Positions 8,124 through 32,600 of a stretch of DNA of 62,858 nucleotides are shown here, piece after piece. Each line of letters begins with the position of its first letter. The first letter of the stretch is position 1. A program made the translations under genes and the position numbers. Source of the DNA: Candidatus Omnitrophota bacterium (lineage in GTDB: Bacteria > Omnitrophota > Omnitrophia > Omnitrophales > Aquincolibacteriaceae); NCBI GenBank assembly GCA_041674705.1, contig JBAYVF010000008.1, positions 1-62,858 on the forward strand. Reading direction: 5' to 3'. Below the pieces are notes generated by a model. The model made no database searches. It saw only the letters and a list, made by a program, of their open reading frames with translations, and was not told the origin of the DNA.

Positions 8124-8184
8124 ATCAGCTCGAAAGGCGAAGTAAGCTTTGCGCTATGCAGGGATCTTGGCGTGAGAGACACAA

Positions 8185-8213: not shown

Positions 8214-8509
8214 AAATTTGAAAGGCAGGATTTTTTTCGAAGATTTTCCTGCCGCAATTTGGAGCTGTTCCGTTTTTGAAATTAGTTTCTTCAGCTGATT
8301 AAAACGAATTCATTTTAAAAAACTTTTTATCAATACGATAAATATGTTTATTGTGTAAGCCGTTTTTTAGTCAAAAAAAGGTCATTTTTCGTGTTTTCTA
8401 ATGCTATAAGAAATGCTATGGAATGTTAAAAAAGTTCATATTTTTTTAAGGAGTATCATAACCAATTGATTGATAATGGGTTACATCATTAAAAATCTTT
8501 TAGGTTTGC

Positions 8510-8538
8510 TTGACTTGGGAGCTTCCATTGGGTATATT
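8510..8538 (+). promoter_or_regulatory. Putative sigma70 promoter for G2
   Basis: TTGACT-17 nt-TATATT in an AT-rich intergenic region, ~108 nt before the ATG at 8646. SD-like GAGGA at 8631-8635. Confidence 0.65.
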
Positions 8539-8645
8539 TCTATTGAGGTTAGTAAGGCTTTAAAATAAGTTTTATATCGTAGTGACTTAGAAGCTTTGGA
8601 ATACAAGATCAGTTCTAATCGGCTTTAAGAGAGGACGGCAATCCG

Positions 8646-11600
8646 ATGATTAGCTGGCAAACACATAGTTTTAAGCCTTGGCTTAGGACCGTTGCGCTAT
8701 TGACGGTTTGTGTGTTTACCTTCACATCGATTGTTTGGGACGGCGGCATCAACAAAGCTTATGCAGCGGCTCCCAGTCCTTCCAGTCCCACCCCCGTAGA
8801 AACCTTCAAAGCCAATGCCATACTTTCTCTGATCGATCGTCCTGACCTTCCCGATAGTTATGGAACGATCAAGGGAACCTTCAAGGGGAATCGCGACACG
8901 ATCGTGATCGCGATCCAGGACGCGCACATCAACGAAGAAGCCCAACGCAATATCGCCAATATCATTCGTTATTTCTCGGAAAAATATCAGCTCAACCTCG
9001 TGAACCTCGAAGGCGCGAGTGGCGAACTTTACACCGAACTCTTTTCCTTTTTCCCGAATAAAGAAGCCCGCCGGAATGTCGCCGATTATTTCCTGAAAGA
9101 AGGACGCCTTACCGGCCCCGAATATCTCGCCATTGTTGACAAGCCGGCGATGACACTTTTCGGTGTGGAAGATAAAGACCTTTACGAAGAAAACCGCAAA
9201 GCCTACGTGGACGCGCTCCAGTTCAAGGATCGCGATGAAAAGATCCTCGCCGAACTCGATAAGGTCCTTCAAGGGGTAAGCCGTTTTGTGTTCCCGGAAG
9301 AAATGCGTGAGCTGACCCGCCGCCGCGCCGCGTTCCAGGAAGGCGGGCCGGAGCTCGTCGCTTATGTCCGTTATCTTGTGGAGCTGGCCCGTAAGCATAA
9401 TATCGCCTTGGATGAATATCCGGGCATGCATTCCCTGATCGAGCTCGTGGACCTTGAAAAGAAAGTCGATTTTGACAAGGCTGAAAAAGAGACCGATGAA
9501 CTCGTTAATGACATGAAGCGCGTTCTCTCGCGCGAGAAGCTCTCCCGTTTCCTCACCAACACCGTCCACTTCCGCATGAAGAAGATGAAACGCGCCGCCT
9601 ATTACGGCTATCTTCAGGATGAGATCCAGGGGATTAGCGTGGCCCAAACGGGAGGGGAAGACCTGAACACGAAATACGCTAATGTGATCGCCTATATTCA
9701 ATACATGAAACTCTATGACGCGATCGATGTTTCGATCTTTGACGAGATCGAGTTCCTTGAGAAGACCGTCAAGAACAAGCTCTTCACGTCGCCGGAACAG
9801 GTCCAGCTCGATCACATCCTCAGGATCTATGATATCTACTGTAAGATGTTCGACTTTACGCTCACCAAACAGGATGCCGAGTTCTATTACACGTATCAAG
9901 ACGAGTTCAAGTCAGAAACCTTTGTAAGTTTTCTCAACCCGCTCATGTCGAAGTACCACTTCACCTACGGATTGCCGTCCCAAGTGAAGACACTCGATCA
10001 AGATCTGCCGCGTGTGGAGCGCTTCTATAAAGCCGCTCTGGAACGTGATCAGGTGTTGGTCGAGCGAGCGGTTGAGAAAACCTTTGCCACTGGGCAGAAG
10101 ATATCCGCCATCGTCACAGGCGGTTTCCATACGCCCGGGATCGAGAAGTACCTTCGCGAGAAGGACATCTCTTATATCGTCGTCGCCCCGCGCATCACCA
10201 AGGCGATCGACAAGAAAAAGGAAAGCGCGCTCTATGACGCCGCCCTGCGCGAAACCCCGCTCCCGATCGAAAAAGTCCTGACGGAGACATTCCTCCAGCC
10301 CCGGAGCGCCGTTCTGAATGACCCGCGGTTCCAGCTGGCCGCATGGCACATGATCCTGGCGAAGGGAGATAAGCTCGATTTTTCCAGTTTTGATTCCGAT
10401 CGCGTTCTCTACTTTCCGATCGAAATGGCAGCTTCGCTTTTGCGGGCCTCGGACGTTACGACCGCTTTTAAGGAAATCACGGACTCGCTTGCGAAGCTCG
10501 AGGAGAACGCTAGCGCCAGGGACAAGCCGGCGGTGGCAGCCCTGAAAGCATTGCTTGCCAAGTTTAAGCCGGAAAATATCACTGAAGAAGCCGACGGGAA
10601 CAGGACCTTGTGGATGCCGACGGTCGGAGAAGATTTCCTTGCTTTTACATTGCATGGCGAAAAATGGAAAGTGACTGAAGTGAAGGGCGCTATTCCGGGG
10701 TCGCGTCGTTCGATCCCGTCCGGCGAAAAAACAATCTCTCTTTATCGTGTGCGTGGTTTCATGGTTCCGGAGAAGGTGAAGACGGCCCGCGCTGAACTTC
10801 GTATCGGGGATGTTCTAGTTCGGACCGGTGAGCTTCCCATGACGGATGGCTCTGCCGCACTTAAACTTGAACCGACTGCCGGACCCAATCTCAGGCTAGT
10901 CGAGGTGGCGCAGGAAGCGGCCATTAAAGCGTCTCAGACGCAGCAAGAGCTCTATGAGCGCAATCTTGATCGTTATAAAAAATCCGGATTTGAAGTCCCG
11001 ACCCAAAAAGATGCCCAGACGGCGTTCCGCGCTCTTCTTTCAAACGCAAAATCCGGGGACAAGCTCCAAGCGCTGATCGAGACAGGCGCGCCCCAAGCGT
11101 TAAAAGCCGGTCTTATGGACCGCGTTATGATCATCCGGCTTTTAGGCCCACGTTATTCGGCGGATATGATCCGTACGAGAGTTCCGCGTCTTCTTGCCTC
11201 GGATGTCCCGGTGAATACCTACACGATGACTTTCCGGACCGATGCAGACATTGATGTCTATCGCCAGCGTTTGAGTGAACGGCAAGAAGAGGTTTTTGCG
11301 AAAAGCTATGGGGAAGGTCTTGAGCCGTTGATCCGTCAGGAGTTGGAGGGACTTCGCTCCGCCGGTATTACGCCCAACTTGGATACGATGAGAGTCCAGG
11401 TGGAGGCGGGTAAAAAATTAGCGCAGGGATCCTTGTATCGTCTCCCGATGGGTTTTGGTAAGACCCTGGCCTTGCGAGTGGCGGCTCACATGCTTGCCAG
11501 CGAAAGAAATTTTAAAACGGCCGAAGGTAAAGGCGTTCTTGTTTGCACGGTGAATGATGACCTTGCTATGAGGGACGCGACGGCGGCAGGCAAAATACTT

Positions 11601-14600
11601 TCGAATTTCGGTCTTCGGGTAGGATTTGTGAAAGATAAAGAGGGCCAGAAAGTCGGCTATATTTTCAACAAAGAGACCGGTGCCCTGACGGAGACTTCAG
11701 CGGATGAGGTCTATCGAAGCGCTGATGTCATCTATGGGACGGTCGACAAGTTTGTACACAGGTACGAGGACGAGGAGCTCGCGCTCGACGTGACTGACAG
11801 GGTATTCTCGAAACGGCAGTACTTTGTTCTTTTTGACGAGGCCGACGAACCTCTGACTTATCAGCTTATGATGCCGTTTATCGTTTCGGGTGGCGAAAAA
11901 GCCGATGCCGAAAGGATAAGACAGCAGAATATTAGCGCGCGTGAACTTGCAATGGCTATTTATGGCGCCAATGGCGAAGGCGTTAGTCAAGGGATGGTTG
12001 ACATTTCCAAGGAAAAGCAAAAACGGGTTTCGCTGACCCCCAACGGAGCGAATCGCTTGGAAGTTCTTCTGAACGAAAAACAGGTGGAGCTCAAGGAAAA
12101 GTGCGGCTTGGGGGCTGACGTCGTGTTGTGGAAACGCCTGGTCGAGCAGGCTCTTGCGGTCGAGAGGAGTTATAGCCTGGGCACGGATTATCTGATCATA
12201 GGGAAAGAAATCGTCATTATTGGCGAGGATGGCAAACCCCATCCTGGCACGAGGTGGTCGATGGGGCTCCACGCTGCTGTCGAGGCCAAGCATATGAAAG
12301 ACGGAGTCGAGGTTCAGGTCGAGCAGATCACAAGAAACTCCATGATGCTTAAGACGTTCCTTGGTAATAAGAAGCTTATCGCTGATTTTGCGGGCGCCAG
12401 CGGCACCCTTGACGCAGAATTTATGAAGGAAATCCATGGAAAATCCGTTGAAGAGCCCTCCGTAGCGGCCAGTTCCCGTCTTGATACAGACATGATGTAT
12501 GCCGGTGAGGCGTCTAAATGGGAGGCTTTCTTCAAAGAAGTAATTGAGAAAGCCCGCCAAGGGATACCCTTGGTTATTAAAGTCGAGGAAGGAACGGCTT
12601 CCGAGATGGAAGCGAATCTTCGGAAAATGGGGATCCCGTCCGGGGCAGTCATTCGCATATTTGATGCGTCTTCCGAAACCGATATCGCTGAAATAGAAAA
12701 ATTTGGCGGGCAGACGGGCGCTATTACGATCGTGACGAATCGCGGGGGCCGCGGCGTTGATATCAAGCTGGCCGAAGCCTTCAAAAAAGTCAGTGAGGAG
12801 GCAGCCAAAAGCGGCAAGCTGTTCACGGTTTATTCAACCTATATCGACGAGCTGGAGGCCCATGATGTGCAGTTTAGAGGCCGGGCCGCGCGTCGAGGAG
12901 AGTCTGGCCAGTTTAAGGCTTATTGGTCGGTCGAAGACAAGATATTCAAAAAATACGAGGCTCTGCCCGCGGTTCAGGCCGCGTTGGCTGCCATTAAACG
13001 GGAATTCAAGACCGCGGGGGAACCGATCAAAGAAACACGCGAAAAAGGTTCTACGACCGTGACCGATCTTATCGCTGCTTTAAGACGTGCGATCATGAAT
13101 TCGAGAGTCCAGCAGTTCAAACAAGATCAGCCCTTCGAAAAAGAAATGGAAGATCGCAAAGCCGCGTTCCAAAAAATCCGGGAGGCGGTGTTGGCCGGCC
13201 GTTTCGATGATGTCGTTCTCAATGCAGCTATTCCCGGGATCGTCGATCTCGCCCGGCGCGTCAGCAAGGGGAGAGAAGAAGCTTTCAGGAAAGGAATCCT
13301 CGAGTTGATCGACCGGGGTTTTTCCCAATACCTTGATATCGCCGGCAAAGTGAAACATGATCTTTCCCAGGAGATGCAGGAAGATTGGAAAGGGGTCGCC
13401 GCGCAACAGGATCCGTACGTCAAGTTCAGAGATATATCGCTTGCGGCCTACAGGAACGCCCTCGAGTTCATTAATGTTTCGATCGCCCGGAATGCCCCGA
13501 AAGACTGGACGCCCACCGCCACAGCAAAAGCCTTTGGCGTGAAACTCGATACCTTAAAGAGGAAAGCATCCGGATATTTATTCGGCGGAGCTCTTCTGGC
13601 CGGTTCGGTGTGGGTGATCAGTTTTGTGATGCAAGGAGCGAGTTTTATTCAGAAATTGGCGGCAGGGGGTGCCGTCGGCGATATGACCTCAAAACTGGAA
13701 TTTTTGCAAACGCTTTCGACGAACGTGTTCCAGAGCGTCCCTGCAGCGGTTTGGGTGGTTGCCGCGATAGGACTTATAGTTCTCGGATTTACTTTAGCGC
13801 AGACCTATGTGAAGAAATTTTCTCAGAATTATAAAGGATCCAGGAATATGGCCCTGTTTTTCAGAGGGACTGCAACCTGGTCCGAGCGCCTTGGGGCGGT
13901 GGTGTCCATTCCGGTTTCTGTGCTGACCATGCTTAGTTCGATGATGCCCTTGAGTGCGCTGCTCGCTTCGATCGCCGTGCTCGCGTTTCCCGCGACGGCT
14001 TCGTTTCTGATCCCCCTGGTGGTCGCCATGGCTGCGGTAGGGGTTGTCGCAGCGGCGCTTCTTATCGCGGTGAATTACCGCAGCATCAAGGAAACGCGCC
14101 TGGATCAGCCCAGTAATTTTCAACGCGCGATGCGTTCGTTATTGTTCGGGCTTACTTACCTGACGGCGGTCGGGCTGATCGTGATGTTTGTTCCGGGCAT
14201 GCTCTCGGCGGTGTTCGCCGCTGCGGCAATAGGCGTGATCGGCATTCGTGCCCATCAACGGTTCCGGGCGGATTATGGGAAGATTCTTGAGCCATCGATG
14301 CGCGCCAAGGCGGCAGGTTTGGTCGCTGCTGCGGTAGTTTTTACCGGGATTTTCGCCCTGGCATCCTTTGTGGGTTCCGTGGCCGGATTATTTGCAGCGA
14401 TGATGACCGTAGGATCGATCATTCTCATCATTACAACCGGGCTTTATTTTTTCGCTCTTCCTTATATTGCCTCGCGTTTGGCGGCCGTTGAAGCTCAAAC
14501 GATAGGCGGCAAGCACAAAGCTCTTACTCTGAGAGAACTGCTCGAATCCGCGGCTCCGAACGCCCGCGGGATCATCATTGGTGGCAGTGCGGTAGGCGCG

Positions 14601-17600
14601 CTTAGCATGAGTGTTGTTGGATTGGCGGGCAGTTTGCCGGTTCTTACGCTGGTGGGGGTGACCCTCGCGGTGATCGGGGCCGGATTTCTATCTGTGGCGG
14701 GTTTTTTAAATTACAGGAAAAAAGTTTTGGCGTTACGGGCAAAGGGCGAAACTCCGGAGGGTGTTTTTTCGACGCTCCTGGGTACGGACAGCAGGAAGAT
14801 TGTTCAGGGGCTGATGTCCAGTGTGGCGCTTACCGCGGCCCTTCCGTCGATTGGGGCGGGAGCGATGCTTGCCCCGGTAGCCTCTGTAACGCAAAGTATC
14901 TATGCCACCCAGACGAGAGATCAGCTGGTCGAAAATCTCAGCAGTGTTTTTAACATTGCTGTTGCCCCTCAGATTGAGGCGAAAAAACCCGAGGCTGCAC
15001 CGCACACAGGGCTTGCTCCGCCCGTTGCAGACGCTCAAGTCGAAACGGTGCAAAAAGAATTATTGAAGGAGCTGGCAAAAGTGCCGCCGATGGATATGAG
15101 GCGGACACAGCTCGAGGATGCGGTCCGTCAGGCGAAGACGGCTCCGGAATTAGCGAGTCTTACCCAGAGAATCTCGATGATGGTTGCCGCGTCTGAGGCT
15201 GTTGTTACAACTCCCGTGGTGGAAAAAGCGCCGGTGGCAGTCACGGCCGATCAAGATGCAGTTCTTTTTAAAAAGGGTCCGACGGAACCTACCGGTCCTA
15301 CGGGACCCACCGGTCCCACAGGTCCCGGGGGTGGTCCGGGCGGCGGTCCTCCTCCTGGTGGTGGGGGTCCTACAGGTCCGACAGATCTGGGTGGTTTACC
15401 TCCGGGCGCGCTCCCGCCAGGCGGCATCACGGTCCCGATCGATCGCCGAAATGAAGAGAAAGTTGAATTTTCTGAAGAAGCGCTGCGGGCGACCGCAGGG
15501 ACGCTTGGGACCTATGCCGGTCCGTCAATGGTCATGAACGCCAAGGCGAAGGCCGAGCTTGAAAGGATCGACAAACTCGAGGCCCAAGAAAAATCCGCCG
15601 CGGCTCTCGATCAAGCCCGCCTCGAAACGATCAACAGCCGGATCCGTTTCCTGACGCAGGATATTCAGCAAATGAACCGGGATCTGAACGGCGCCGGAAG
15701 TGATGTGACCGAGGCTCTTTCCGCCAAGATCGCAGAGGCTAAGGGTGAGATCACGCGTCTTGAGCAGGAATCTGCGCGTCTTCGTGTGACTCCCAAAGTT
15801 GTGCCGCCTGAAGTGAAAGCTGCGGAAACGCCGAAGGCTATGGCTGTCCCTCCCGCCGCTCCCAGAGCCGAACTCATCAAAGAAGATGCTGCCAAGGCTG
15901 CCGGAGAAGGTGCGACATCCGGGCTGGTGGGTGTTGCTTCGGGGATTCTCGTAGCGTCGGTTGAAATACCCCTGGTAATGAATCAGGCTGAAAAGGATCT
16001 TGCGGACGCGGATCCTGCCCTGTGGCTCTTGAACAGAACGCTCGGAAATAATTTTGCTTTGCGCTGGCAACAGAATGCGAAGGAACAGAGAGAAATCGCG
16101 CTCAAGGCCGTACAGTGGAGGAACTCCATTTTCAAGCTGATGATGAACTTCTCGTGGAATTTTAATCCGCGGGTTTATCACATGAGCCAGAATAAAGTGG
16201 AGATGGCTGAAGGACAGAATATCGATTTTCCTTATAAGTGGGCTAGTGACTCCGAAGGCAATGTTTATCTCCGGCAGTTGGGCGTGGAAGGTCCCAAGGT
16301 GAGTCCGAGAGTGACCGTGATCCAGGACAAAGATCTTGTGTCAGACAAGATGCTGGATCTCGGGGATGTCAGTATTTCGGTAGGCCAATACCTCAATAAT
16401 TTGAATCAGATCCTGAAGTGCCCGGATTTCTGGAAGTATGTCGGCCATGCGCCCGTGGATCCTCTGGAATTTGTCAGTAATGACGCCTACGCCAAGTGGT
16501 CGGGCGTGGCGGGCTATTGGGCATCTCATTACGACACGGTCAAAGGGGAATTCAATAACGCGTCTCTTCCCGAGATCATGAAGGCCTTGGCGGAAACCAA
16601 GGTCAATCTCGAACAGTCTTTGGGCAGGGAACTCGATTTGCAAAATATCAAGGATGCGAGTCTTCTCTCCTGTCTGGCGAAATACAAGATTGAGGGGATC
16701 AATACCGATGAGCTTTTTGGGGAACGTGATAAAGGAAACGTTTTTCTTCTGGCCCAGGCGGAACTAGTCAGCACGCTGACGACTCATTACCGGGGAATCC
16801 TCGAAAAAGAGTTCGAGCGCGAAGATCTGACCCTCCAGTCGATGAAACTGGAAAAGATCGAACAACAGGGCCGGTTCACTACGGAATATCGCGCAATTCA
16901 GGGAGAGATTGTTCAGATAGGCGGCCAGATCACTGATCTGGAGACAATCAGGACTGCCGCAGAAAAGGCGAAGCCGGAGAATATGCTTTTGGAGATCGCC
17001 CGGGCCAAGAGAAATAATGAGCCCATTCCGAGCATTGGATTCGTTCCTTCCGAACAAAATATCAAAGATCTGGACATCGCCATCTCCGACAGAAAAGCGA
17101 AGCTCATTGAGTTGAAGCGCGATCTCTGGAGAAAGGAAAAGGAAATCCGGGATGCGGCCAGTCTTGATATCCACGCAAAGCTTCCCATCGATCTTTCGAA
17201 GATCACGGAGGATCAGATGATGAAGGCCGTCAAGAGTTTGGGGATCGCCGACTATTCTTCGCTTCAGATCCGTCTTTCACAGAATTCCATGGAGATTTTG
17301 CAGAGGAGGATCTCGAATGTCGCGGAGGTCAGCGGCGGCCTTGAATCGATCATTGATGCTTTCAAGATCGGGAATGTCTACAACATCGGGACCGAGGCGG
17401 ATCTCGGCATTTATTTGAAGCTCACGTGGGGCTGGAAAAATCTCCATCAGCGAGGTGTTGAAAAGCAGAAATATGAGAAGTCGGTCTATGAATTTATTGA
17501 TAACGTCCGTTCCGTGCGGCTCAAGCACAACGAAATAAACGCTAAGGTGGAAAGACTCGAGAGGGTTTTGGAGGCCACCCGGCAGTATCTTGATGCCCGC

Positions 17601-20600
17601 AAAAAAGCGACGGCTGAAATGGAGAGGCAGTTTTTGAGCCCTGACGGTAACGCTTCGTTAAAAGCGTTGATCTCCGCCCAAGATTCCGTTCGCCAGGCGG
17701 AGATCCTGGTGCAGGGACTCGAGCAGCTTCTTGCGAATGCAAAGCTCCGTGTCGCCATGTATGAGAATGCTTATGCGGATCTGAAGAAAGCCTTCCAGGC
17801 TGAGGAGAAGACGTTTGCGAAGATGGAAATTCCGGTCCGGGAACTGGACGAGTGGGTGGGCGAGAAGGGCGGCGTTGAGGTGCCGGTCGCAAAACCCGTT
17901 ACGCTTACGAATCCATCCATTCAGGAGCTGGTAGGGCTTTCGCAAAGTAAGATTGATTTGTTCAAAAGAACGGGAACCACCATGAGCGCGGACCACGAGA
18001 CGGTCCAGTGGATTGCGTTCGAAGTTTTGGGGGGGCTGAAGCTTTGGCAGTATGGAAATGCTCAGGATTATATCCAGGGAGATCAAAGCACCTGGATCGG
18101 GCAAGGAAACTTTGGATTCTGGAAGGATCTTATGTTTGGTTCTATGGCGCCGAGGATCCAGGTGGTGGATGCTCCAACGGTCATGCGTCACCTGACAGGA
18201 CAGGTTTCCGATGAAACCCTGGCAGGCCAGGTTGGTCGTGATACGGTCGAGATAGAGTTGATCCATCACAATCAGCGCATTGCCGACCAGGTACGTGAAG
18301 CGGTGCGGCTCCGGACGTCCCTGCAGGATAAGGAGAATCGTCTCCGTAACGAGATCAGTGCCCTGAAAGGGCGCATGAGCGAAGGGGTTAAGGAAATCCG
18401 GGACGCGGGCCTTTTGAGTTCCTCGGAAAATTCGGGACCCCCCCAGAGAATGCAGATTCTTGAAAAAGCAGTGAAGGATTTTTCCGAAAATGAGGCGGAG
18501 ACTGTTAAAAAGCTTTTGCGAGAAACAGGTCTTTCAGAAGAAACGCGAACGAAGTTAACGAAGTTGATGGAAGAGATAGTGAATCTCCGCAAAAAGGGCC
18601 GGACGGTAAGTAGCCTTGAGAATGAGATTGCGAACCTGAAGACGGAGATGAATAAAGGACTTGAGGAGATCCGTGCTGCAGGCTTTTTGAGCCCGAAAGG
18701 AATGAGGGTTTTTGACGAAGCGGTAAAGGATTTTTCCAAAAAGGGGTTTATCGTGGAAGAGGCGGAGAATGTTATAAATCTTTTGGGAGGAGGAACAGGC
18801 CTTTCGAGTAAGAAAGATCAGGAATTGATGTCGGAAATGGCGAATTTCTTCCAGCGGGTGGCGGATGTGGAGACAGCGCGGATGAAATATGACGTCTGCG
18901 TTTTTGAGCTCAAGTCGACGATCGGACTCAGTAACGGAGAAACCCTTATTTTTTCTCCGGATTACAATTTGAACGCACTGGAAGAAGGCTCGGAATTCCT
19001 GAAACCTTATCCCCGGATCCTGGATGCTCAGCTGACGCTCACGAAAGAGGGCCGGGAAAAGATAAATAAATTTTTGGATGAGATCAAACGGGCGATCAAA
19101 AAAGTCAACAAAGTTTCGACCCCCGAAAAACTTAAGGCACAAAAAGAGGGGGTCGTGAGCGCGTTGACGGCGGTCAAGGCGAATCTCGAGGCCGTCCTTT
19201 CCGGGACACGGTCGGCGGAGTCTTCGACGCCGGATCTGCTGACCCAGGCAAGTGTCATGTATCTGGAGGCGGAGCGTCTTTTCGCACAGACCTTCCCCAA
19301 ACGGGGCAACGCCCTTTTCAACAATGCACGGTTGCTGCTTGTGGATATTTCCGGTATCCCGCAGGTGCTTATGGCGGCCCGCCATCTGGGATGGGCAGAT
19401 CGTAATATCGGGATGCGGGATACGTTAAAGTGGGAGCCATTCAGTTTGGGAGCTTTTTTTGGAGTCGGTATAAAAGGAGCAAAAGTGGTTGCGGGTGTGG
19501 CGCCGGATAGCGAATTGCCGGAATATCTTATCGGGAGCACGCTGATCGGTATTCAGAAGGGTTGGCAAAAACTGCTTCCGGAGAAGAAGATTCCGATCGT
19601 GAGTAATTTTTTCCGTAACCTGGCGAACCTCTCCGGAACGAATCCCGAGGGACGTTGGCAGAAGATGCTGGAGTTTCAGACGCGTGCTATGCAGGAGATC
19701 CTTCTCGCCGAAGAACCCACGAATGAACCCCTGAGCCTTAAACAGAAATATAAAGCGGATTATATGGTTTTGGCGGAGTTGGAAGCGCTTTACAGCGCGC
19801 GGATCGATGAGGTCAATGCCCGGGAAGAGAAGGAAGCTCCCTTAAAAAGATTTCAGCAGGCGATGGACAATAACCAGACGATCGCACAGGGCTTTGAAGA
19901 GGACCGGCAAATTCTGACAGAACGTATGAATTACACGAAGAACGTAAAAGACGCGATCGCGTTCCGCATTCGCCTGCTCGGGGGCCCGGATCAGAAGACG
20001 TTGGATCAGGAACTTAATCCGCGTCCCATAATCGAAGGGGAAGTTCGGCAAGGCTCGGTTAAATTTCTCGCGGGTGATTTGAAGGGAGATTTTGACGCCA
20101 ATGCCTTGAAGGGGAACGGGTTAGCGGATGGATGGGACCAAGGGAAGCTTGACGCGATAAGGACGAGGCTTGGGATCGGAGTTGCTGTCACTAAAGAAGA
20201 GTGGGTGGGGGAACTCAACCAGATCCTAAAAGCCAAGATGCGTGTTGCGGATTATCAGGGCCTTCAGCAAAATCCCTTGATCCTGAAAAATCTCGACAGC
20301 GAGATCCAGGGATTACTAGCGAAGGTGCTGGACCCCAAAACGGTCGTGACGACAGAAGCAGAAGCGGAATTAATAAAACAAAAGCTGGATCCAAAACCTC
20401 ACATAACTGAAACAGAATTGGAGCGTCTGAACAGAAAATTATTAGAGGCCGTTTACCCGCAACAAATCGAGAAGACTATTTTTGATAAAGTTCGTTCTGT
20501 GGAAGGCGCCACGGCAGGGAAAGGAATTGGACAGTCTCCCGTACGGGAGGTTAGTTCTCTGGAAGGCGCTAAGGCGCTGAAGTCGGAAACCCTCGAAAGC

Positions 20601-23600
20601 CGGATCGAAGAGCTGGAAACGCAACTTGCGGAGAAGGGAAGGTACCTCCCGTATGTGGCAAGCAAAACCCCCGTGAGCCGGCTGTTGAATACCGGGATCT
20701 ATGGCAAAAACTACAAGCCGGACCGGACGCTCATGTTCTCGTTTGATCTGGGCGAGATCTTTATGGCGTTATCGCAAAAAGTAAGGAACGTGATCGCCGA
20801 CCGTTCTCAGGCGAAGAAAGACAAAGTCCAGGAAGCTGCCGCCCAGGAGCTTCTTCAGAAGGCCTCCGTTTGCGCTCAAACGGAAGAAGAGATCCAGGCG
20901 ATTCTTCCTCGACTCGGACCGGAACGGGAGCAATTCCTCAACATTGTGACCCGGCTCCAGGCGTACGACGAATTCACCGCAAAAGACCGGGATATCGCGC
21001 TTGAGCAGATCGGGCGTTTGAATCGTGAGGCGGCGGAACTTCTTCAACGCTGGATCGCGGCCCGCGAGGATCTGAATAATGTCCAAAAAGGGTTTTCATT
21101 CCGGATCGAAACAAAGCGGTTCGCGGCCGGGCAAGAGATCGAAACGGGAGCGTTGGAGGCCCTGACGGAAGATCAGCTCAAAAAACATCCTGATGTCAAT
21201 TATGTCACCAAGCTTTTTGACGAAGCCGAGAAAAACGCGCGCAAAACTCTTTTGGAGGGTTTCAACGCCTGGTACGAAGTTGGTGAGGCGGACAATCTGG
21301 ACGGGACAAAGTCGGTTGCGGGGTTATCGGTTCCGCTTTGGGGATACGGGAAGCAAAGCCGGAGAGGCATCGCAAGAAAAAATGTCCAGATCCAGAAAGA
21401 AGCCGTGGACGAAGTCATGCGCCAGGTCAAGTCCGACTTCGAAGCTGTAAAAGTCGAATATAACACCAACCGGGATATTCTGAGAGAGCGGGAGCGTGCG
21501 GCCAAGGTGGCTTCTCCGACGGAATTGAAATCCCGCGAAAAAGCCATGAATGAGCAGAATACCGTGAGCGGAGACTACTCAAGTTCTCTGGACCAGTGGG
21601 CGGCCGCTGTTAAGTCGGCGTCGGCCGCGAGGGTGGACTATTACCGTTCTTCGGCTAAATTGATCCACATCTTGGATCTCTTCAAGGTGCCCGTGAAACA
21701 AACCGGTCCTGTTACAGAAGTGCCCGGGCCTTCCACGCCGGCACCGGCTACGCCGGAAGAAATAGCGAAAAAAGAAGCGGATGCCCTGACGGCAGCGATC
21801 GCAAGCGTCATGTCAAAAGACGTGCCGTACGGGAACGTGGAGTCGCCGGAAGTTGTGTCGAACAAGTCGCTTTCTTATGGCAAGGATTCTGAGACGAAGG
21901 CCGGCGAGGTGATGACAAAGATCTTTCACCGGACGCTGCCGGAAGAGCTTGCGCTTGAAGTGAAGAAGATCCCGGCGAAGATCGAGGCGCAGAAAAAAAT
22001 CGTGCAGACGGCGAAAGCGGTAGCGAATGAGGCAACAACAGCCTATCAGAACTATGTGACAGACCATTCAAGACCTTTTGTCAAGTTCCTGGGGATCAGG
22101 ATCCGTTGGGCTTGGGTCCTGAAGCTGGTTCCCGAATCCTGGATCCGGACGAAAATGGATGCCGCGGAATTGAAAAAAGCGGAGGAGTTGAAAAAGGATC
22201 AGGAACAGAAACGCGGAGAATTTTCCAAGGCCGAAGAGAGCCTGAGAGGGTTTGAGAAAGAGCTTCGTGAAAAGACGGCTGAAATCGACGAAATGAAGAA
22301 AATCCGGGTCCTTCTTGCCAATATCCTTGGCCGTTACGGCCAACGCCTTATGGTGCAACGCCCTGATTGGGTGGAGCATATCATCAGTCTCTCGGAAGGG
22401 CTCGGCGATGGGTTCATTCCGGAATTTTTCAAAAATGATAAAGAATCGCAGGAAAAAGATAAAAAGAAAGATGTGACAGAAAAAAAAGAGGATCCGGCCG
22501 GACCGTTGCTGGCATTGTGGGGGCGCCAGATCGAATTGCCCTCGCCGATGCTTTTTACGGACAGCCAGCTGCTTCAAAAATACAATGTGAATTTGAAGTT
22601 GATCGGGTTTTTGAATTTCTTTGCCCGCTTTGGAGATAAGCTCGATAAAGATCCGGAATTTTTCGCAAAATACAAAAGTGACCTATACGACAGGAGCGAC
22701 AAAGCCGACAAGAGCGCTGAAGCTCGGAAAAAGGATAGAGACCAGTGGATTCAGGAGCTGGTGGCTTCTTTGCCGACGGTGCGTGATTTTGTGGAGATCT
22801 ATCGTTCCAGTAATCCAAACCTTGAACCGCATAAACTTCTCGCGAATGATCCGAAAGATCTCGGGAGTTACATCTCTGGATGGGCCCTTTACGCGAAATT
22901 GACGGGTTTTAAGATCACTCGGGGGATGTCCTCTGAGAGCGTGATCTCCTGGATGAAAGAGAACCAGGAGGCGATGGGGGCCATGATGAAAGGTCTCAGC
23001 TTTAATAATCTGGTAGTGAAGGTCGAAGCCCAGGATGTGCCGCCGCAAGATCTGATGGAGGGTTTGAAGCCCATGGCGTTGGCCCATACCATTGATACGG
23101 GGGAACGAACCACGACGGATCAGGATTCTCACATGATGGATGTGGCCACAGTCACCGCAGTGAATTTTGACCGCTTCTTGAAAAACCGGAAATCACCGGA
23201 ACAAGAGCTGGACATGGGACGCGTTAATAGCCGTATCCGGCAGGCGGTCAAGACAGCTTTTAACGAAAAGATCTGGGCCGAGGTGGATGTCCGGCGTCAG
23301 CCGGGAGCCTCTTTCCTGCGAGACAGGAAACCCCGCCAGGGAGAGCCTGAGGGTCCCGAGGATGTTCTTTATGACACAGTTTATGCGAGTGTCGAAAAGG
23401 CGCTGACCGGGGGAGTTGCCGGTGGGTACGAGAACATCATTCTTGCCGGTGTTCATATTGACAATCAGGAAGCCCGGCAAAAATGGGTGAGTATGCCTTT
23501 GGACGAAAGGGTTACGCGCATCGAAGAACTCATCAGTATTGCCGGTGATCTTGTGGAGCCTCTCGAAAAGCTTTATGGAAAACTCGATATTTGGTCCCCG

Positions 23601-26600
23601 GATGGTCGGGATATGGGGATCCTCATGGCCCACGCGCAATTTGTTCAGATGATCACGGGGCACGAAAAAGGCCAGCGCGCGGCTGAGAAATACGCGGCAG
23701 GCGGGGATCTGACCCGAAGCGAGCTCGATGAAAAGATCGACTATGAGCGCTGGAAATTTAAAGACAAAGAAAAGAAGATCGAATCCACGAAAGAAGAACG
23801 GCGTGACGAATACATTCGACGGATCAAGCTGCTAACCGATCTTCGCGACGCTCCCGAGACCCGAGACATTTGGGATAAAATGGGCCAGGTTTTTACGGTG
23901 ATGCATCCCGGCGTTCCTGCAGATCTTCGGTCAGGAGACGGCGCGTTTCTTGGTTTTCTTCTCAACGAAGTGGCCCAGGCGAATGATAAGGATAAACCTA
24001 AAGAAACGCCGGAGCAGATGCGGACTAAATATGAAAACATTTTGAGACTCACAGGTTCGCCTGTTTCTCTTATAGGGACGCCTTCTTATATTTTTTCGCC
24101 TTCTTCCTCTTACGCGGAATACTTGCAAGAGCTCGGAAAAGAGGGTGATCTCCAATCGATTCTCAGAGAGCTTTCGGATGCGATCACGGGACTTTCTGAC
24201 GAGATCCAGAGCCTTTCCCGCGAGATTGCTGTTGAAAAAGGTCAGGTTCCACCGGCTGACAAAGTCGAGGCCTACAAAAAGGCTGTCAAAGATTACAACG
24301 GAAAGATCAGGGATTACAACGACCTGGTCGGCAGGCTTACTGCCGTTGCGCGGACACTTCCCGACAATTTTGAGACCCTCTACGCTGAACGAGCGGCGGT
24401 TTTGAAACTTTTAAAAGAGAGGTATGGGCGCGGATCATTAAAGGCGCTTCAATTGTGGATGCAAGCGATCTATGAAGAGGTCCATACGGCGTCTCTTGAG
24501 CCTGGGAAACCCGCAAAAAGTTTTTGGGACATTGAGAGAGAGGTTTTTGATTTTCTTCCAAGAATGCGCTACGGGGAGGAGACAAAAGACTCTCGTGTCC
24601 AAAAACTATTGAAAAAGGAATCAGACGAAAATTTTCCGTTAGCACTGGTGGAAGGGGAAGTTGCAGGGCTTGTGCTTTTGTTGAATGACCTTGGGATTAA
24701 GGATCCTGCCGCGATGCAGGGCGCGGAAAGCAGGCGGATCATCAACGACTACTTTGAAAAAGGGCTCAGGCCGAGCAATGGGTATCCCTCATTTCGGCAA
24801 ATGCTCTGGCCGGAAGTCCAGCAGCAGTTGAAATATTTGAAGCAGTCTCTTTCGCTGAACGAACCGGACATTGCGTTGGCCCTGGAGGATCCGGGAAAAC
24901 AGCAGATGCTTTATTACGTCATTGCCAAACAGGGCCAATTGGGAGTTGCGAGTTATTGGATTAAATACATTGATATGGCGAAGAGTCGCAAGGATATGAG
25001 CGCTCCTCCCACGTTTAAAAAATACAAAGAGATGATTGAAAGAGCTCGGAAGAGCTGGGAGCTTTCGGATACATATCTGGCGAGTTTTGGATTCGAAGTT
25101 ACGCCTGCGGATATCGACAGTGTAGTGTCTAATCCTAAGGTTAAGACCGCAGAATTGGAAGAGTATTTTAAGTTCGGGCGAGTATTTCTGGCGCTTGCAA
25201 AAGGCGATATCGATAGCATTCCAAAGGAATATGCGGATCTTATGGACCCGAAATTCAAAAAGGAAGTCGCGAAGTCGAACATGGGGCGTCTTCTGACCTT
25301 TGATGAAATGAGCGGCTACATCACGATGTTGCGAAGCATGAAAGGCAATTACTACCAGGGGCACCTGCTTCCCCAAGTAGCATTTTCATTAATAGGACCG
25401 AGTAAAATTGCAAATGTGGATTCTTTAGACCCCAAACGTTTGTATGCTTTGTCAGCTGGTATGGAAGGAGAAAAATCGCGAGCGTTGTTCAACGCGATGA
25501 TCTGGAAGTTTTCCAGGAATCTGTTGCTGGAATATCCTGGCTCTCAGGGTTCGGTGGATACGAACCTTTACTCATATTTGGAATTTTTGATGAAAGAGAT
25601 CGAACAAAAGAATGCGGGGATGTCTCCCGAGAATGTTCGCGTGACTGCAGCAGGGCTTTTCGATTTTTCAAGAAAAATAAAGAATGCCATGCGCAGTGAA
25701 TGGTTTGAAAGACAGATCGTTTTTGACAAATCAATTGACAAAAACGACGACCAAATGAACCGCATTATTGAATTGAGGCTTCTGACCCGTCCGGCCAAAC
25801 GCGAACTGATTACGAACGAAGAAAGAGTTGCTCTTTACGGTAAGGATTGGGAAAAACAGGATGAGAAGGACAGAAGGCCGAATAGGGAGGCTTTTGTAGA
25901 TTATCTCTTGGAGCAGAATCATTTTTACAGCATGAAAGCTCCTTGGACTTCCTTGATTTCTAAGAAGCGTCGGGACGAATTAGCTAAAATGGACCCGGAA
26001 GTTTCGAATGCGGTGATCAATGACACCAAGGTGTTGATGCGGATGTTCGTCGTTGGCTGGCAGGTCCGGCCTGTGGTCGACGACTTGATGGCCGGGGTTA
26101 TGAACGTCCGTTCGAACGGCGAAGGAGTTCGCTTTCTTAAGGCCGAAGAAGCTGTTCTACGGCGATATCTGGATATCTCGATGAATCCTCCGAAAGCTGT
26201 TGTATTTACGGACAAAGAAAAAGAACTGACCGACGCTGATTTTCTGAGACAAGAAATTAACACGGCGGCGGTGCCGATGGCTGATGAAGATCTCATGAAA
26301 TGGGAGAAGGCGTTAAAGCGCGGCGAGATTAGCCGTGAAAAAGTTCGCCAGATCTTTTCAGATATTCATGATTTCCGAAAAGTTTTTGAAGAGCAAAAGA
26401 TTTCGATGCCATTAGAAAGAATTTTGCGGGTGATTGAGGTGGGGCGGTCGGTGTCGTTGAGTCACGCCGGGATACTTGAACCGCGCGGCTTGGAACTCCT
26501 TACGGAGGAGGAGGCGAAAAATCGTGACGCTTTCTATGAATCCCAGGATACGGAGTTAGCCAATGATTCGCAGGACCTCTTTTTCAATAATTTCGTTCTG

Positions 26601-29600
26601 AAAAACAATCCTCAAGTAAAAGAAAAAATGGCGAAGGACGAATCGGGGAAACCCCTGACGCCAAAAGCCTACGAACTTTTCCTGTCGTCTCCGGAAAGGA
26701 TCAAAACCGGAATTCAATCGGGATTCAGTCTCATTTTCATCGGGATCATGGCGGTAGTGGCATTTCTGGTTATTGCGGGTGCCGCATTGGATCTGCGGCG
26801 CCGTAAAGCGCAGGCGGTCGATCGATCGCGTACCGGAGCCGACAGGCCGGAATTGATCCGGACGAATCGCCGGGAGAAAACTGGACAAGTTCGTTCGGAA
26901 GTCCGGACCCCGCCTGTTGAGGTGGAACAGAAGCGTTCCGAAGTCCGGATCGAGTCCGAACTGCAAGCCGCTGGTGTTACCAAACCGCGCATTCCCGAGT
27001 CTTTCAATAAAGGGCCGGGTTCGATGACTGCGCGCGGATGGTTTTATATGTTTCTTCACTTTGCGATCGCAGGGCTCTTTGTGTACGCGGTATTCGGGGT
27101 GATGGATCTGTCCAACACTTCGATGATGGGAGCCGCTTTCGAATTGGCATGGGATTTTTTTCTTGGCCTCGGCCTCGCCCACCGCTTGACGGCATTTTTG
27201 TCAACTCAAGTCCATCACATTCGGGCGAAAATGGGCGGGTCGCGATCGAGCCGCGATGCGGTCGAACGTCCCGAGGCCGACAAATTCACTCCTGTCCTTA
27301 AAGAGAAAAAATCCTTCGAGTTTTCTGTCCGTGATTTTAAAGGAGATTTTGATGCCAATTCGTTGAAGGGTAATGGCCTGGCTGATGGGTGGGACCATGG
27401 AGAAGCTGGGGGTAAAGTAGGTCTCGATACGGTACGAGCTAAAGGAAGCTCGGCTACCAAAGAAGAATGGGCTACAGCGCTCAACGAGGTTTTGAAAGGC
27501 CGGATGAGGAGTGCGGATTATGCGGCGGCTGAATCCAATGAGTCGGTTTTGAACAGTCTCAGTGATGACGAACAGGCCCTTTTGAAAAAAGCGAAAAATG
27601 CTGCAGCCAATGTGAAGAACGTTGAGGAATTAACGCGTCTCAATAGACGATTGCTAGAGGCTTTTTATCCGCAACAATTCAATAAAGTCTACGAACGCTA
27701 TTGGGATATGGATAAGAATGAAGAAATCTTTGTCAAAAACAATGTGATCCTGACTGGTGTCGGAGCCGAAACGGCCCGGCAGGCGGCTTTGGCGGCGCGC
27801 GCGACGAATCCCTTGCCTGTTTTTAATACTGAGCCGATCACTCGCGAGGCGGGTGATGCGAAAGAAATATTCATGAAAGGCGAGAACAACCGGATCGTTT
27901 CACTCAGAAGCCCTGAAGGGCAAAACATTTTTGCGATCGCCAAGGGCCATAAAGTGGCTCACGCCTACTTCCGTTTCAATCTTATGAATTTACCGGGTTG
28001 CGGAAGTAAAAAACTTTTAAATCAGGAAGAGGAGAGCCTTCCAGAAAAAGAAAAAAAAGAGCTTTTGGAAAAGAAGCAGAAGGCTCATGCGGCGCAGCTC
28101 TATGAGTTCTTTGGGGAAGCTTTTAAGAACGACTGGAGTTTGGATTATGCGGAGGCGGAATTCCAGCGCCGGATCAAGGAAGTGTGGACGGGCGCGAATG
28201 ACAGCTTCAAATGGGAGTGGATGAAGGATGACAATGGTGATGACTTGGTTCTTGCGAAAGCGTTCGCGGATTATTATTTTCTCCGGAATATTATCCGTTC
28301 GGCCGCGAATAATCTGGACCCGAGAGGGAACACGACACTTGCGGTCGTGACTGAAAAAGAAGGCGCCATGATCGATAAGGCGAGGAAATACCGGCAAGAC
28401 TCGGCCAATATCGATGCCCTTCTGAGTAGTCCTGAAGCTAAAACTCGGGTCGAGGTGCTGGAAAAGAGCAAAAAGAACAATGGTCGGATCTCGCAGGACG
28501 ACGAAGCTTGGCTGAAGGACTATAACGACAAGAAAGGCTGGAAGGACAACGAAAAGACATTCAGATTTGTCAGTGATGCGCTTGATTATGCCAGACGCCA
28601 GCTTGTGACCATCGGACAGAGCCGGTTTGGGAGCGATTTTTATAAGGCGGATTCAACAGACCAGAAAACCAGGATAGGCCGACAGCTTATTTATTGGATG
28701 CCTCTTTCCGATGTGATTCTGGAAAAGAAACAAGGCTACATTCTCGCCTTTCTGGATTATGTGAACGGGCAGAATGGAGCTCCTGTTGTGGAAAAAGGTC
28801 AGGCGGTCCCGATGAACCGGCATTTCGGGCGAGTCAATGATCGGGCGGCGCATGCTTGGATCGGCGTTGTAGGAATTCTCTTTGGCGTGGGAACTTTCTT
28901 TGGACTTATTCCTGTGGTCACCATGCTCCTGGAAGGGGTTGTTCTCGGCACAGCGCCCGCTGTGTTGATCAGCTTGGGGATGGCTTGGATCGGGCTCATC
29001 GCGGGACGTTACTTGATCAATTTACTGGCGCAGTCGCAGACAGCCGATGGGACGTTCTTTTACGAGACGAACAGCCGTGGGGCGAAGTTTCTCAGAGCGA
29101 TCGGATGGTTGCGTCCCTCGAATATGAAACAGACGGGGCGGGCGGACCGGTATTTTGTGGATGAGATTTACGATGACCCCGGTTCTATTTTTGGAATGGA
29201 CCCTGACCATTTATTGAGAATGAAGCGCAAAGTCGGGATGAAACTCATGCCTGTTCGCGAAGAATATTCCCGACCGGCGGCATGGCTCCGTAAGCTTTTG
29301 CGCAAACAGGTCAACCCAGAGCGCATGGAAATGGTCCAGCAATTTGAGCTGAACCCGGATGGCAGCGCCTATATGTTCTCGGCGGATGATAAGAATGTTT
29401 TGGGGGACCCTCCGGATCGTCCCAAGTACGCGACAGAGGACCCTTCGCTTCTTTTCCCGACCCGGAAACTGATCGAAGTGGCGACGAACAAGTACAACTG
29501 GGCGGGGATCATTGTCCCGCGAACCAAGATTGTTACGGACCCGAAAGAAAGAACGGGTTATTCATCCACGAACGATTTCTTCGGAGAGCTCGGCATTTTT

Positions 29601-32600
29601 TATGCGTATGCGCTTCAGCTAATCCGCGGCCGCGGAAATTTTACCGGTAAAGCGCTGATGAATCTTACGGTGGTCTACGGACACGGGGATCGTCGGAATA
29701 GCCCGACGCGTTGGTGGGCCCCCACCGCCGGCCTTTTGGCTGGTTTTGCGGTCGGGTTCATGATTTGGATGACCTTGGGGCAAGTGGTAATCTTGCCGCT
29801 GGCTTTTTGGCTTTTTGGATCTATGAATGCCGCGGTTTTTGCTGCGCTGTTTTTCTCCTGCGCAACGGGAGGTTCCTACGGACTCGTCAAGTTCAAGCAG
29901 CTGAGCCATGACTACCGCGAGGGAGATACGGCCGGAGCCGTGTATGTCACTAATGCAGCGATCACCGAGCCTTCCACGGACACTTTTTTTGCGGCCGTCG
30001 GACGTGGCTTTGTCCGTTGGGGGCAAGGCGATATGATGCGCGGGGATGAGATCTTTGCGGCAGGAACGCCGATGGGTGCACGGTGGATGAATCTTGTGGC
30101 CCTCGCGGGGTACCTGGAGCCTGTGATCTTCGGATTCTGGATCATCAAGCGCTTCTTCATCGACCCGTCTTTTTCAGGTCTTTCAAACATTTATTCTCTC
30201 GGGTTTCACAAAGTGGCAGAGTGGATGATCGTACCCGGGATTCTGAGCCCGCTGACCGTAGGGATTATTGTCGGGATATTAGCAGCACTTTTGATCATCG
30301 GATTTATTCAGCGAAAAGGTGAGCAGGCTAGCCACGCATCTACAAGGAAGCCTCTCCAGGGTTGGAGCCGCGCAGCAATGCCGCTCATTCTCACCGCGCT
30401 GTCTACGTTATTGGCAATCATCCTCTCTCCGGCATGGGCGGGTTTTTTCGGAGTTCAAGCAGGTGTGATCTTGTTTTCCTATTCGTTTACACTGCTTCTT
30501 GAGAACGAAAAGGTGGGGAACAAGCTTTCGTCTTGGATTCCGCCGTTTCTTAAAAAACTTCTTAACATTGAAAAAGGTTCGATCGCGAATCAAATGAATG
30601 GAAAAATCTACTATTTTGTTTTGGCTCCGTTAGTGGTTTTGGGCTCAATTTTATTTTTTGTCTTGATTGTTTCGTCCGGAGTTGTGCAGTTGCCAATGTC
30701 TGCACTGTCGCTTATTTTTATCGCGGTGATGTATCAGGTGCTTGTTTTTCCGGTGTTCTTTGGCAGCCTTTCCGGGATGTACTGGAATAAATTTTCCGGC
30801 TTTATTAAAACGACCACTACGGGATTGTCAGATGTCTTTCTGCATCTGCGGTTTACCTTCTGGGAAAATTCGTGGAAGCTTTTTATGGTAGGTCACCAGG
30901 ATACGGGTCGTGCGTGGTTCATGTCGACCGGAGCGACCATCGGGCAGTGGCTCATCTGGACCTTGCGCTTGGGGATCGTTCTTGTCCCGCTTTCATTTAT
31001 CGTGTTGCCCATGTTCGGGTTGCCCACGCTGGCCAGTCTTGCCGTAGCCGGACTGGCAAAACTGAGCTTTGTTAATTTTGTGATTACGTCCAAACTGACG
31101 GCAGTTCCGCTGGCCGCCAAGGTCTTGGCCGTTGTAAAAATGTCTCTTCCCGGGTTGATGGCGTTTTGGATCAGCTATGCCTATGTTCGTTACGCATTCA
31201 AATTCACGCGGATGCTGGAAGTGGCTCTAAGGAATCAACAGCTGCCGTGGACCACCTTCTCACAGGGAGGCGGTAAAAAGAAGACGCTGCTTGAATCTTA
31301 CCAGTTTTATATCGCTTCGCTTATCGCGGCGGTCGCCGCCGTTGCTTTGGGCGTTTTTACTCATACTAACTTCTATATCTTTTTGTTCGGAGCGCCCTTC
31401 CTTTGGTCATGGTCATTCGCGCCCTGGGTGTCGTGGCTCGACCAGTTCCCTTTGCCGCCGAATTACCCCAACTTTGATGCGAAGGGGAAGCGTTGGGTGA
31501 GAGTTAAATGGCGTTTTATTCATGTGGTTAATGTCATTTCTAAGGAGCTTTCCGGTTCGGAGATCATCGATGTGAAACGCGTCGAAGATGCCGAAAAAAG
31601 TGGACGTTCTTCATTCAGGCATTCGTTTCTTGGATCTTTAAAATTTTCCACAGATGATCTCGAAGGGGATTTTGATTCTAATTCCTTGACGGGGACGGGG
31701 TTGCCCGGAGGGTTGTCTGCGGGATGGGACCAGGGCGCACTTGCTTCTGTAGAGAATAAGCGTAAAGCGATTTTGGAGAAAATCATGGAAATTACAGAAG
31801 GCTCCACAATTGTTCCTGCGTATGATTCTGTAAAGGCTGTTTTGGCGGATGGATGGGACCATGGAGAACATCGCGACAAGGATGGCCTCAACGCAGTACG
31901 GGCTAAAGGAAGTTTTGTCACTAAAGTGGAATGGGATTCCGCAATAAACGAGGTTCTGAGGGTCCGGATGCCTATTGGAGCTTACCGGAATGTTCAGGCC
32001 AATGCCGCCCTATTCAGCAAGCTTGATCCTGAGACTCGGGCTCTCCTCACAAAGGCTTTGGATGCGGATCCCGATGCGACTATGACGGAAGAGGAGTTAA
32101 TTCGCTTGAACAGAAAGCTGTTGGGTGTCATTTTTCCAAAAATTCTATCAAAGAGCATCACGGCTCCAGGTCAGATCAAAAAAGAAATTGACGGGAAAAG
32201 AAAACAGCTCGACGAGGCAAAGGCGAAGCTTGAAAGTATAAAAACTGCTACCGAAGAAGAATGGGTGAAGGCGGAAGCGGTTCTAGAAAAGTCAAAAAAA
32301 GAACTGGAAAAGTCACAACAAGAACTGGAAAAGTCAGAACAAGATCTGAAGAAAGCTAAGGATGAGTTGAAAAATTATAAAAAAGGATGGGCCGAAGCGC
32401 TCAACCCGATCCTGAAAGTCAGGATGCTCAGCGAGGATTATCAGGCGGTTCAGGAGAATTCCTTACTACTGAAAGGTTTCGATAAGGAGGTCAGGGCTCT
32501 GCTGGCGAAGGCGCTGAAGATTCCGGTTGATGAAATGACTGAAACGGAATTGGAACAATTGAATAGGCGAATATTAGAAGCTGTTTATCCCCAGAAAATC

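Follow-up and report, generated by a model that had tools for sequence, protein, structure and literature searches.

A SecA-derived ATPase, a membrane-helix bundle and predicted TolC-family modules in one giant Omnitrophota polypeptide

Proteins of 10,000 to over 100,000 residues raise the open question of how a bacterium can synthesize, export and anchor them; for the giant proteins of the Omnitrophota the account in print ends at many transmembrane helices and a SecA-like domain. The stretch of DNA analysed here (62,858 nucleotides (nt), referred to as the window) is the whole of contig C8 (JBAYVF010000008.1) of a Candidatus Omnitrophota genome of 1.78 Mb (58 contigs, 87% complete) and holds three giant open reading frames (ORFs), G1, G2 and G3, all on the + strand. 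An earlier reading of the letters alone, here called the original prediction, had placed a SecA-like motor, a bundle of transmembrane helices, a Gly/Pro linker and TolC-like repeats in one polypeptide at 11330-21680, a range that corresponds to amino acids (aa) 896-4345 of G2. Our analysis bears this out: G2 comprises, in this order, a SecA-derived ATPase, a private bundle of about 11 predicted membrane helices, a linker and TolC-family modules with predicted strands. SecA and TolC are normally encoded by separate genes, as the original prediction correctly stated, and their fusion is thus notable. The host is a diderm, in whose genome SecY, SecA and BamA are encoded together with about eight TolC genes of the ordinary kind. 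A single G2 chain probably traverses both membranes of the cell.

The motor carries the three motifs named in the original prediction, GFGKT (aa 936-940, nt 11451-11465), DEAD (aa 1064-1067) and RGRAARRG (aa 1411-1418), in this order and with TNRGGRGVD (aa 1364-1372) between the latter two. Three Pfam SecA domains, together spanning aa 909-1389, are found over their cut-offs, namely SecA_DEAD (77.7 bits compared to a cut-off of 24.6; E-value 1.2e-21), SecA_PP_bind (aa 1122-1213; 38.7 bits compared to 23.5; 1.7e-9) and P-loop_SecA (60.2 bits; 2.7e-16). The NCBIfam SecA models cover aa 911-1570 with 187 bits and miss their equivalog cut-off of 814 bits. In the PDB, the SecA structure 3jux matches G2 with an E-value of 2.4e-38, and its TNMAGRGTDI and RGRAGRQG motifs pair with TNRGGRGVD and RGRAARRG of G2. 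A separate housekeeping secA, the presence of which had been considered beforehand, lies at C2:128393-130684 (1080 bits, 893-aa product), and SecY and BamA are likewise encoded apart from G2.

Alignment of G2 and two orthologues with this housekeeping SecA by hhalign yields 661 columns at a probability of 99.9% (E-value 1.2e-34). The alignment covers residues 47-795 of the 893-aa protein and stops before its CPCGSGKKYKKCC; by this comparison the SecA-like part is without the N-terminal ~46 aa, the wing domain, the C-terminal linker and the zinc finger. What is left of the helical scaffold (aa ~1480-1613) is recognizable from QQDPYVKF, which matches QRDPLVEY of the housekeeping protein with QxDP..Y/F kept. 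In this low-confidence portion of the alignment about 135 aa of G2 stand against about 205 aa of the housekeeping SecA, and the stretch is thus too short to leave room for a wing domain. The motifs are conserved in orthologues at 73% and at about 35-37% identity. The lack of a usable nucleotide pocket, which would have spoken against the original prediction, is not what we see: the catalytic motifs of the ATPase are intact, and orthologues with as little as 35% identity keep the pocket.

Downstream of the motor, the hydropathy profile, segmented by hand, gives five tight hairpins plus one weaker helix, hence 11 predicted helices in the cluster, where at least 10 had been claimed. Counts of lysine plus arginine in the successive loops are 8, 6, 5, 6, 5 and 7 on the motor side compared to 2, 0, 0, 0 and 0 on the opposite side. 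The positive-inside rule would place the motor and the positively charged loops of the bundle in the cytoplasm and would have the chain exit the bundle into the periplasm. Even at an E-value of 10 no Pfam family matches the bundle, either in G2 or in two orthologues, and the candidate identifications as a known transporter or as SecY were dropped because none of the three orthologues showed any Pfam family up to this value. Sequence identity of the bundle is 67% to the orthologue G015 and 34% to the orthologue G014, the last helix being conserved in both. The Gly/Pro linker that follows has the composition claimed for it (Table 1) and is specific to G2, being absent from G015 and G014. Within aa 2091-6020 the sole strongly hydrophobic stretch lies near aa 2423-2445 (Kyte-Doolittle hydropathy (KD) 2.07; next best 1.52), and this stretch of G2 is not conserved in relatives.

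The TolC-like region of G2 was not detected in whole-protein Pfam and NCBIfam scans or in a single-sequence PDB search. When the protein was scanned in 400-aa tiles, the OEP profile (PF02321) matched aa 2910-3035 with 14.9 bits and aa 4217-4338 with 17.3 bits, in both cases over the same profile span. These matches belong to two modules, referred to as M1 and M2; the OEP scores are 14.9-15.8 bits for the second repeat of M1 and 17.3-18.9 bits for M2. In a six-frame scan of the genome the M1 and M2 matches, with E-values of 0.001 and 0.009, come directly after the canonical OEP genes, and the next match has an E-value of 0.34. To compare M1 at the level of alignments, we used 21 sequences (alignment A2; aa ~2400-3100) from G2 and the giant ORFs of relatives, among which identity is 12-31%, against 21 canonical OEP genes of this and related genomes. 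hhalign matches the two locally over 303 colinear columns (probability 86%, E-value 4.8e-6) and globally over 415 columns (probability 92%, E-value 6.7e-8), compared to an E-value of 0.63 for the reversed alignment and to scores of 20-35 for block-shuffled alignments (real score 56.8). A local hidden Markov model of the 21 canonical OEP genes gave marginal matches in the giant frames, and PDB sequence searches with the TolC region, as a single sequence and as a 7-sequence profile, returned no TolC, which we attribute to a homology too remote for HMMER.

Structure prediction of M1 by AlphaFold2 with alignment A2 gives a model with a predicted local distance difference test (pLDDT) score of 76.7 and four strands, at aa ~2496-2503, 2698-2709, 2895-2904 and 2918-2926 (model residues 97-104, 299-310, 496-505 and 519-527), together with two long helices of 65-68 residues at aa 2710-2774 and 2930-2997 (model residues 311-375 and 531-598). 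The order of these elements in the model is that of TolC, S1-S2-H3-H4 / S4-S5-H7-H8. An earlier run from 7 sequences had reached a pLDDT of 60 without any strands, with TolC folds matched at E-values of 0.01-1, and was replaced by this 21-sequence run. In a PDB fold search with the M1 model the best 39 matches are all of the TolC family, headed by VceC (2.4e-7) and followed by OprN, OprJ, CusC, SilC, MtrE, OprM, CmeC and TolC, with TM-scores to the fold targets of 0.4-0.51; the next match has an E-value of 0.48. A generic coiled coil, the outcome that would have spoken against the original prediction, is thus not what the model shows. In the opposite direction, the A2 profile retrieves 26 matches from 1.84 billion representative proteins. 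The strong ones are giants or fragments; of ten weak ones that were tested, nine are canonical Pfam OEP proteins of 340-544 aa, and canonical OEP proteins appear at E-values of 2.7e-7 to 9e-4. The TolC-like repeats first noticed in the letters are thus real, though below the Pfam threshold: the rank of their Pfam matches right after the true OEP genes, the profile alignment, the predicted structure with its fold matches and the reverse profile search agree on them. On these four independent lines of testing, we regard as solid the assignment of M1 as a complete two-repeat TolC-family subunit by homology, with its strands predicted.

Compared to the OEP profile, M1 has an insertion between the predicted strands S1 and S2, namely a globular domain of ~190 aa. 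Most of its blocks are predicted with pLDDT values of 86-96, and among relatives it has conserved motifs and loops of variable length. If M1 sits in the outer membrane, the inserted domain would occupy the first surface loop and would be exposed at the cell surface.

M2, together with its counterparts from three relatives, aligns with the C-terminal OEP repeat over 189 columns (hhalign, probability 95%, E-value 3.2e-8). The preceding aa 3940-4145, tried as its first half, gave an E-value of 0.53 alone and no OEP signal. Equally solid, on alignment and modelling, is the count of three OEP-type repeats, which make up one complete subunit and one half. Neither M1 nor M2, which are embedded from aa 2440 and aa 4144 of the 9,316-aa chain, has a signal peptide or lipobox of its own. 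Further TolC modules were not found in aa 4400-9300 of G2; a candidate at aa ~7886-7967 (E-value 9e-4, single sequence) is a Lys/Glu coiled coil that matches the helical columns alone, and weak NCBIfam matches to TrlF, LegC2/C7 and MbeD lie in coiled-coil stretches and were taken as spurious.

The middle stretch between the two modules is helical or coiled-coil. A third TolC unit in aa 3058-3803 is unsupported (probability 5%, E-value 0.007, 3 sequences), and the middle stretches of G2 and of the public-library protein P0007 are not homologous. Within it, ~65 aa are duplicated in tandem (aa 3233-3297 and 3324-3387; 18342-18536 and 18615-18806; 46% identical). Between the middle stretch and M2, a domain of ~140 aa (GDFDANxLKGNGL...LNRKLLExxYPQ) has the first of five copies in G2 (20055-20480, 27309-27689, 31629-32606, 33348-33851); with up to 62% identity it is the piece most widely conserved among the giant ORFs of relatives. 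P0007 (aa 881-1551 and 2481-2759) and a second protein of this library, P0011 (aa 1-180 and 930-1227), have an M1-like followed by an M2-like module, with the order and the spacing, about 750-930 aa, seen in G2. The M1-M2 pair may form one larger conserved unit.

The orthologues of two other species separate a constant front from an exchanged tail. The G015 orthologue (record CAZSFZ010000005.1), a 10,366-aa ORF, shares 67% identity with G2 over aa 1-2203, falls to 26% in M1 and is unrelated beyond; the G014 orthologue, a 7,884-aa ORF, shares 36% identity over aa 1-2153 of G2 and has M1. The order of head, motor, bundle and M1 is kept across these orthologues, and the tail is exchanged. Across the 96 genomes of the order, giant ORFs with M1 are found in 19 and giant frames with the SecA-like domain in about ten. 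M1 follows a transmembrane cluster in the library proteins P0002 and P0010, the latter a fragment, and neither of the two matches the SecA-like profile. With M1 in so many genomes, the SecA-like domain rarer and these two proteins without a SecA match, motor and TolC module are separable and do not form an obligate pair. A homologous-protein search with two regions of G2 returned no giant relatives; the relatives are found by the genome searches.

Table 1. Coordinates of G2, its parts and the adjoining giant ORFs in the window.
Feature	Coordinates	Strand	Basis or remark
G1	3-7430	+	giant ORF, 5' end open, HEAT repeats
G2	8646..36596	+	single ORF, 9,316 aa, holds all parts; 27,951 nt without stop codon
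Signal-peptide-like or anchor segment	8646..8765 (aa 1-40)	+	hydropathy; hydrophobic core aa 12-30, AYA|A
N-terminal head region	8766..10802 (aa 41-714)	+	ends in RAELR (aa 715-719)
R[SA]ExR copies in G2	10788-10802, 26892-26948, 34146, 34833, 35886	+	motif count
SecA-like ATPase	11286..13484 (aa 881-1613)	+	nucleotide-binding domain 1 (NBD1), preprotein-binding domain, NBD2, shortened helical scaffold
Polytopic membrane bundle	13575..14885 (cluster aa 1644-2080)	+	hydropathy; about 11 predicted transmembrane helices
Gly/Pro-rich linker	15231..15470 (aa 2196-2275)	+	at least 50% Gly plus Pro; core PTGPTGPTGPTGPGGGPGGGPPPGGGGPTGP at aa 2215-2245
M1, predicted TolC-family two-repeat subunit	15963..17816 (aa 2440-3057)	+	hhalign, AlphaFold2, fold search, profile search
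Inserted globular domain, ~190 aa	16161..16736 (aa 2506-2697)	+	between S1 and S2 of M1
Helical / coiled-coil middle stretch	17817..20054 (aa 3058-3803)	+	no significant OEP signal
~140-aa repeated domain, first copy	20055..20480	+	widespread in giant ORFs of relatives
M2, predicted TolC-family module	21075..21674 (aa 4144-4343)	+	a single OEP-type repeat with robust support, matching the C-terminal half of TolC
Next transmembrane helix and double RSEVR	26730..26948 (aa 6029-6047; aa 6083, 6097)	+	ends the undivided block of SecA, transmembrane and TolC parts
G3	37080-55280	+	6,066 aa, chain of enzyme domains

A Shine-Dalgarno-like purine-rich stretch, AGAGAGGA, lies 5' of the G2 ATG. The first ~500-600 aa of the head share 22-27% identity with the N-termini of eight other giant frames of the same genome, and from aa 31 to aa 1643, the region in which the ATPase lies, there is no hydrophobic segment (maximal KD over 19 residues 1.27). 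Directly after the head stands the first of six copies of a short motif, R[SA]ExR (aa 715, 6083, 6097, 8501, 8730 and 9081), for which about 0.9 copies are expected by composition; G1 has 12 copies and G3 has 8. The position of the post-head copy (aa ~683-719) is kept in G2, G015, G014, P0002 and P0010, and a scan of G2 finds the motif absent from aa 716-6082. PDB sequence searches with aa 1-908, 4346-6029 and 6030-9316 of G2 gave no matches. Open frames of at least 1,500 aa number 18 in the genome and take up 15.5% of it; G2 is the only one of them with a SecA-like domain. The adjoining giants G1 and G3 have export-type N-termini. G3 is composed of radical SAM, 2H-phosphoesterase-like, SDR epimerase, ROK kinase, dehydroquinate-synthase-like, HAD, phosphoribosyltransferase and radical SAM/SPASM domains, and is followed by the housekeeping genes nadE, ogt, argS, miaA and hflX.

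The reading that we favour, with a confidence that is evenly balanced between acceptance and doubt, is that G2 belongs to the giant proteins of the Omnitrophota type and spans the envelope; its motor would export its own chain and its TolC modules would anchor it in the outer membrane. The motor would hereby work in cis and drive the downstream segment of ~4,000 residues across the inner membrane, with either its own bundle or SecYEG as the route of passage. The TolC-type modules would be brought from the periplasm into the outer membrane by the β-barrel assembly machinery (BAM), probably as trimers with other copies of the chain, where they would anchor the giant protein and expose its loop domain of ~190 aa at the surface of the cell. 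At aa 6029 the chain would re-enter the inner membrane, so that one polypeptide would staple both membranes together. A conserved head joined to a different tail, as observed in the orthologues, fits such a cis-acting export device.

Several observations weigh against this reading. The transmembrane segmentation was drawn by hand from hydropathy, without a trained predictor, and the hydrophobic stretch at aa 2423-2445, if it is a transmembrane helix, would flip M1 to the cytoplasm. The N-terminus resembles a Sec signal and, taken literally, would place the ATPase outside the cell, since no hydrophobic segment follows before the bundle. Both TolC modules score below the Pfam OEP gathering threshold of 22 bits, strand S4 of G2 is shorter than in relatives, M2 amounts to half a subunit by the tests that were run, and a module tethered at both ends would be an unusual substrate of BAM. 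Some of these points would equally suit a quite improbable alternative, namely that the modules are relics, degenerate captured TolC copies which now act only as stiff helical spacers in the periplasm, without ever entering the outer membrane: scores below the Pfam threshold, the deletion in S4, the lack of a detectable first repeat in M2 and an identity among relatives of 12-31% speak for it. Against it, the segments of the strand hairpins rank with the best conserved columns of the family, the predicted fold has strands in all four expected places, and the insert falls precisely into a surface loop, a position that is meaningful only if the barrel is inserted in a membrane. An assembly artefact, by which a chimeric metagenome assembly or a pseudogene would have joined unrelated genes in frame, is scarcely credible even for a fragmented metagenome-assembled genome with the contig number and completeness given above; G2 runs for 27,951 nt without a stop codon, and the order from head to M1 recurs in the independently assembled genomes G015 and G014.

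Two further alternatives concern what the chain does. A self-contained secretion machine, in which motor, bundle and TolC-type duct would form one conduit in the manner of a fused type I system or tripartite pump and would deliver G1 or G3, parts of its own chain or other proteins to the outside or to a neighbouring cell, we consider unlikely. All three kinds of component found in a tripartite exporter are present and correctly ordered and would lie in the fitting compartments, this order is conserved in G015 and G014, long helical stretches after M1 could take the role of an adaptor, and the adjoining giants begin with export-type N-termini. However, motor and duct are separable, as seen from the distribution of M1 and of the SecA-like domain over the 96 genomes and from the two M1 proteins without a SecA match; moreover, the bundle has almost no periplasmic loops on which a duct could dock, and the support for TolC extends to 1.5 subunit-equivalents only. 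The boldest form of this idea, to which we give little credence, is that G2 and its relatives, probably as trimers, constitute an undescribed secretion system, in which a SecA-derived motor, a channel of a new family and a TolC-type duct act as one trans-envelope conduit that extrudes its own variable tail or the neighbouring giants onto the cell surface or into cells of a prey or host; with a cryptic third TolC-type unit in aa 3058-4143, one chain could even complete a pseudo-trimeric barrel by itself. Similarly improbable to us is a polyprotein, cut after translation into a separate accessory SecA, a bundle and extra outer-membrane factors. The excess of R[SA]ExR in G2, its many copies in G1 and G3 and the conserved position of the post-head copy in five proteins are compatible with processing. 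Yet both modules lack a signal peptide or lipobox of their own, and, if R[SA]ExR is a cutting site, its absence from aa 716-6082 would leave motor, bundle and both TolC modules in one piece of ~5,400 aa.

On the favoured reading of an envelope-spanning, self-exporting protein, a TolC module 3' of motor and bundle in the same chain extends the account of the Omnitrophota giants to a model of the envelope that runs from the inner membrane through the periplasm and the outer membrane to the cell surface. The ~190-aa insert in the TolC surface loop would be a candidate contact point with other cells, and an embedded outer-membrane factor poses the question of how BAM handles a barrel tethered at both ends. 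With about 620 aa for M1 and about 730 aa for the motor, both parts are small enough for expression and testing.

Compared to the outer-membrane factors (TolC, OprM, OprN, CusC, VceC, MtrE, CmeC; OEP, PF02321), M1 has the same two tandem repeats, each predicted as a strand hairpin, a helix of ~65 residues down and a helix back up, and it is colinear with the canonical OEP genes of the same genome over 303-415 columns. Unlike these proteins, it is embedded in a chain of 9,316 aa without its own signal peptide or lipobox, scores below the Pfam threshold, has the insert of ~190 aa in surface loop 1 and is tethered on both sides to inner-membrane helices, with M2 as a half unit; to our knowledge, all other outer-membrane factors are subunits that stand alone. 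With canonical SecA and SecA2 the motor shares NBD1, the preprotein cross-linking domain, NBD2, Walker A, DEAD and the arginine finger, whereas it forms one covalent chain with a membrane domain of its own, reaches 187 of the 814 bits of the equivalog cut-off and is without the N-terminal ~46 aa, the wing, the C-terminal linker and the zinc finger. Tripartite efflux pumps and type I secretion systems (reviewed in PMC8277102) likewise combine an ATPase, a polytopic inner-membrane part, long helices and a TolC-type part. In G2, by contrast, these parts are in one polypeptide, the ATPase is of SecA rather than ABC type, the membrane domain matches none of the known transporter families, and an adaptor (HlyD or membrane fusion protein) domain was not detected in Pfam scans, including those of 400-aa tiles.

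Closest to G2 are the giant proteins already described from the Omnitrophota, in which divergent SecA DEAD and preprotein-binding domains occur in proteins rich in transmembrane helices, the normal SecA genes are separate and a role in self-export was proposed (West-Roberts et al. 2023, 10.1101/2023.11.21.568195); a PF07517 architecture cluster among the giants has since been reported (Nielsen & Lui 2026, 10.64898/2026.06.07.730766). Very long ORFs, many transmembrane helices, a divergent SecA next to them and a normal SecA elsewhere are common to G2 and these proteins, G2 with 9.3 thousand residues being below the sizes stressed in both papers. While the giant SecA domains were described as lacking scaffold and wing (West-Roberts et al. 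2023), G2 retains a remnant of the helical scaffold (aa ~1480-1613). A further difference is the presence of TolC modules; TolC, OEP and efflux are unmentioned in both the 2023 and the 2026 paper, the latter of which dismissed two β-barrel topology calls as artefacts (Nielsen & Lui 2026). A full-text literature search likewise returned no paper combining Omnitrophota, TolC and giant proteins, and none on TolC-like modules in giant proteins. Thus, the part of G2 that joins SecA to transmembrane helices is already published (West-Roberts et al. 2023), whereas for the TolC modules embedded in the same chain we found no report.

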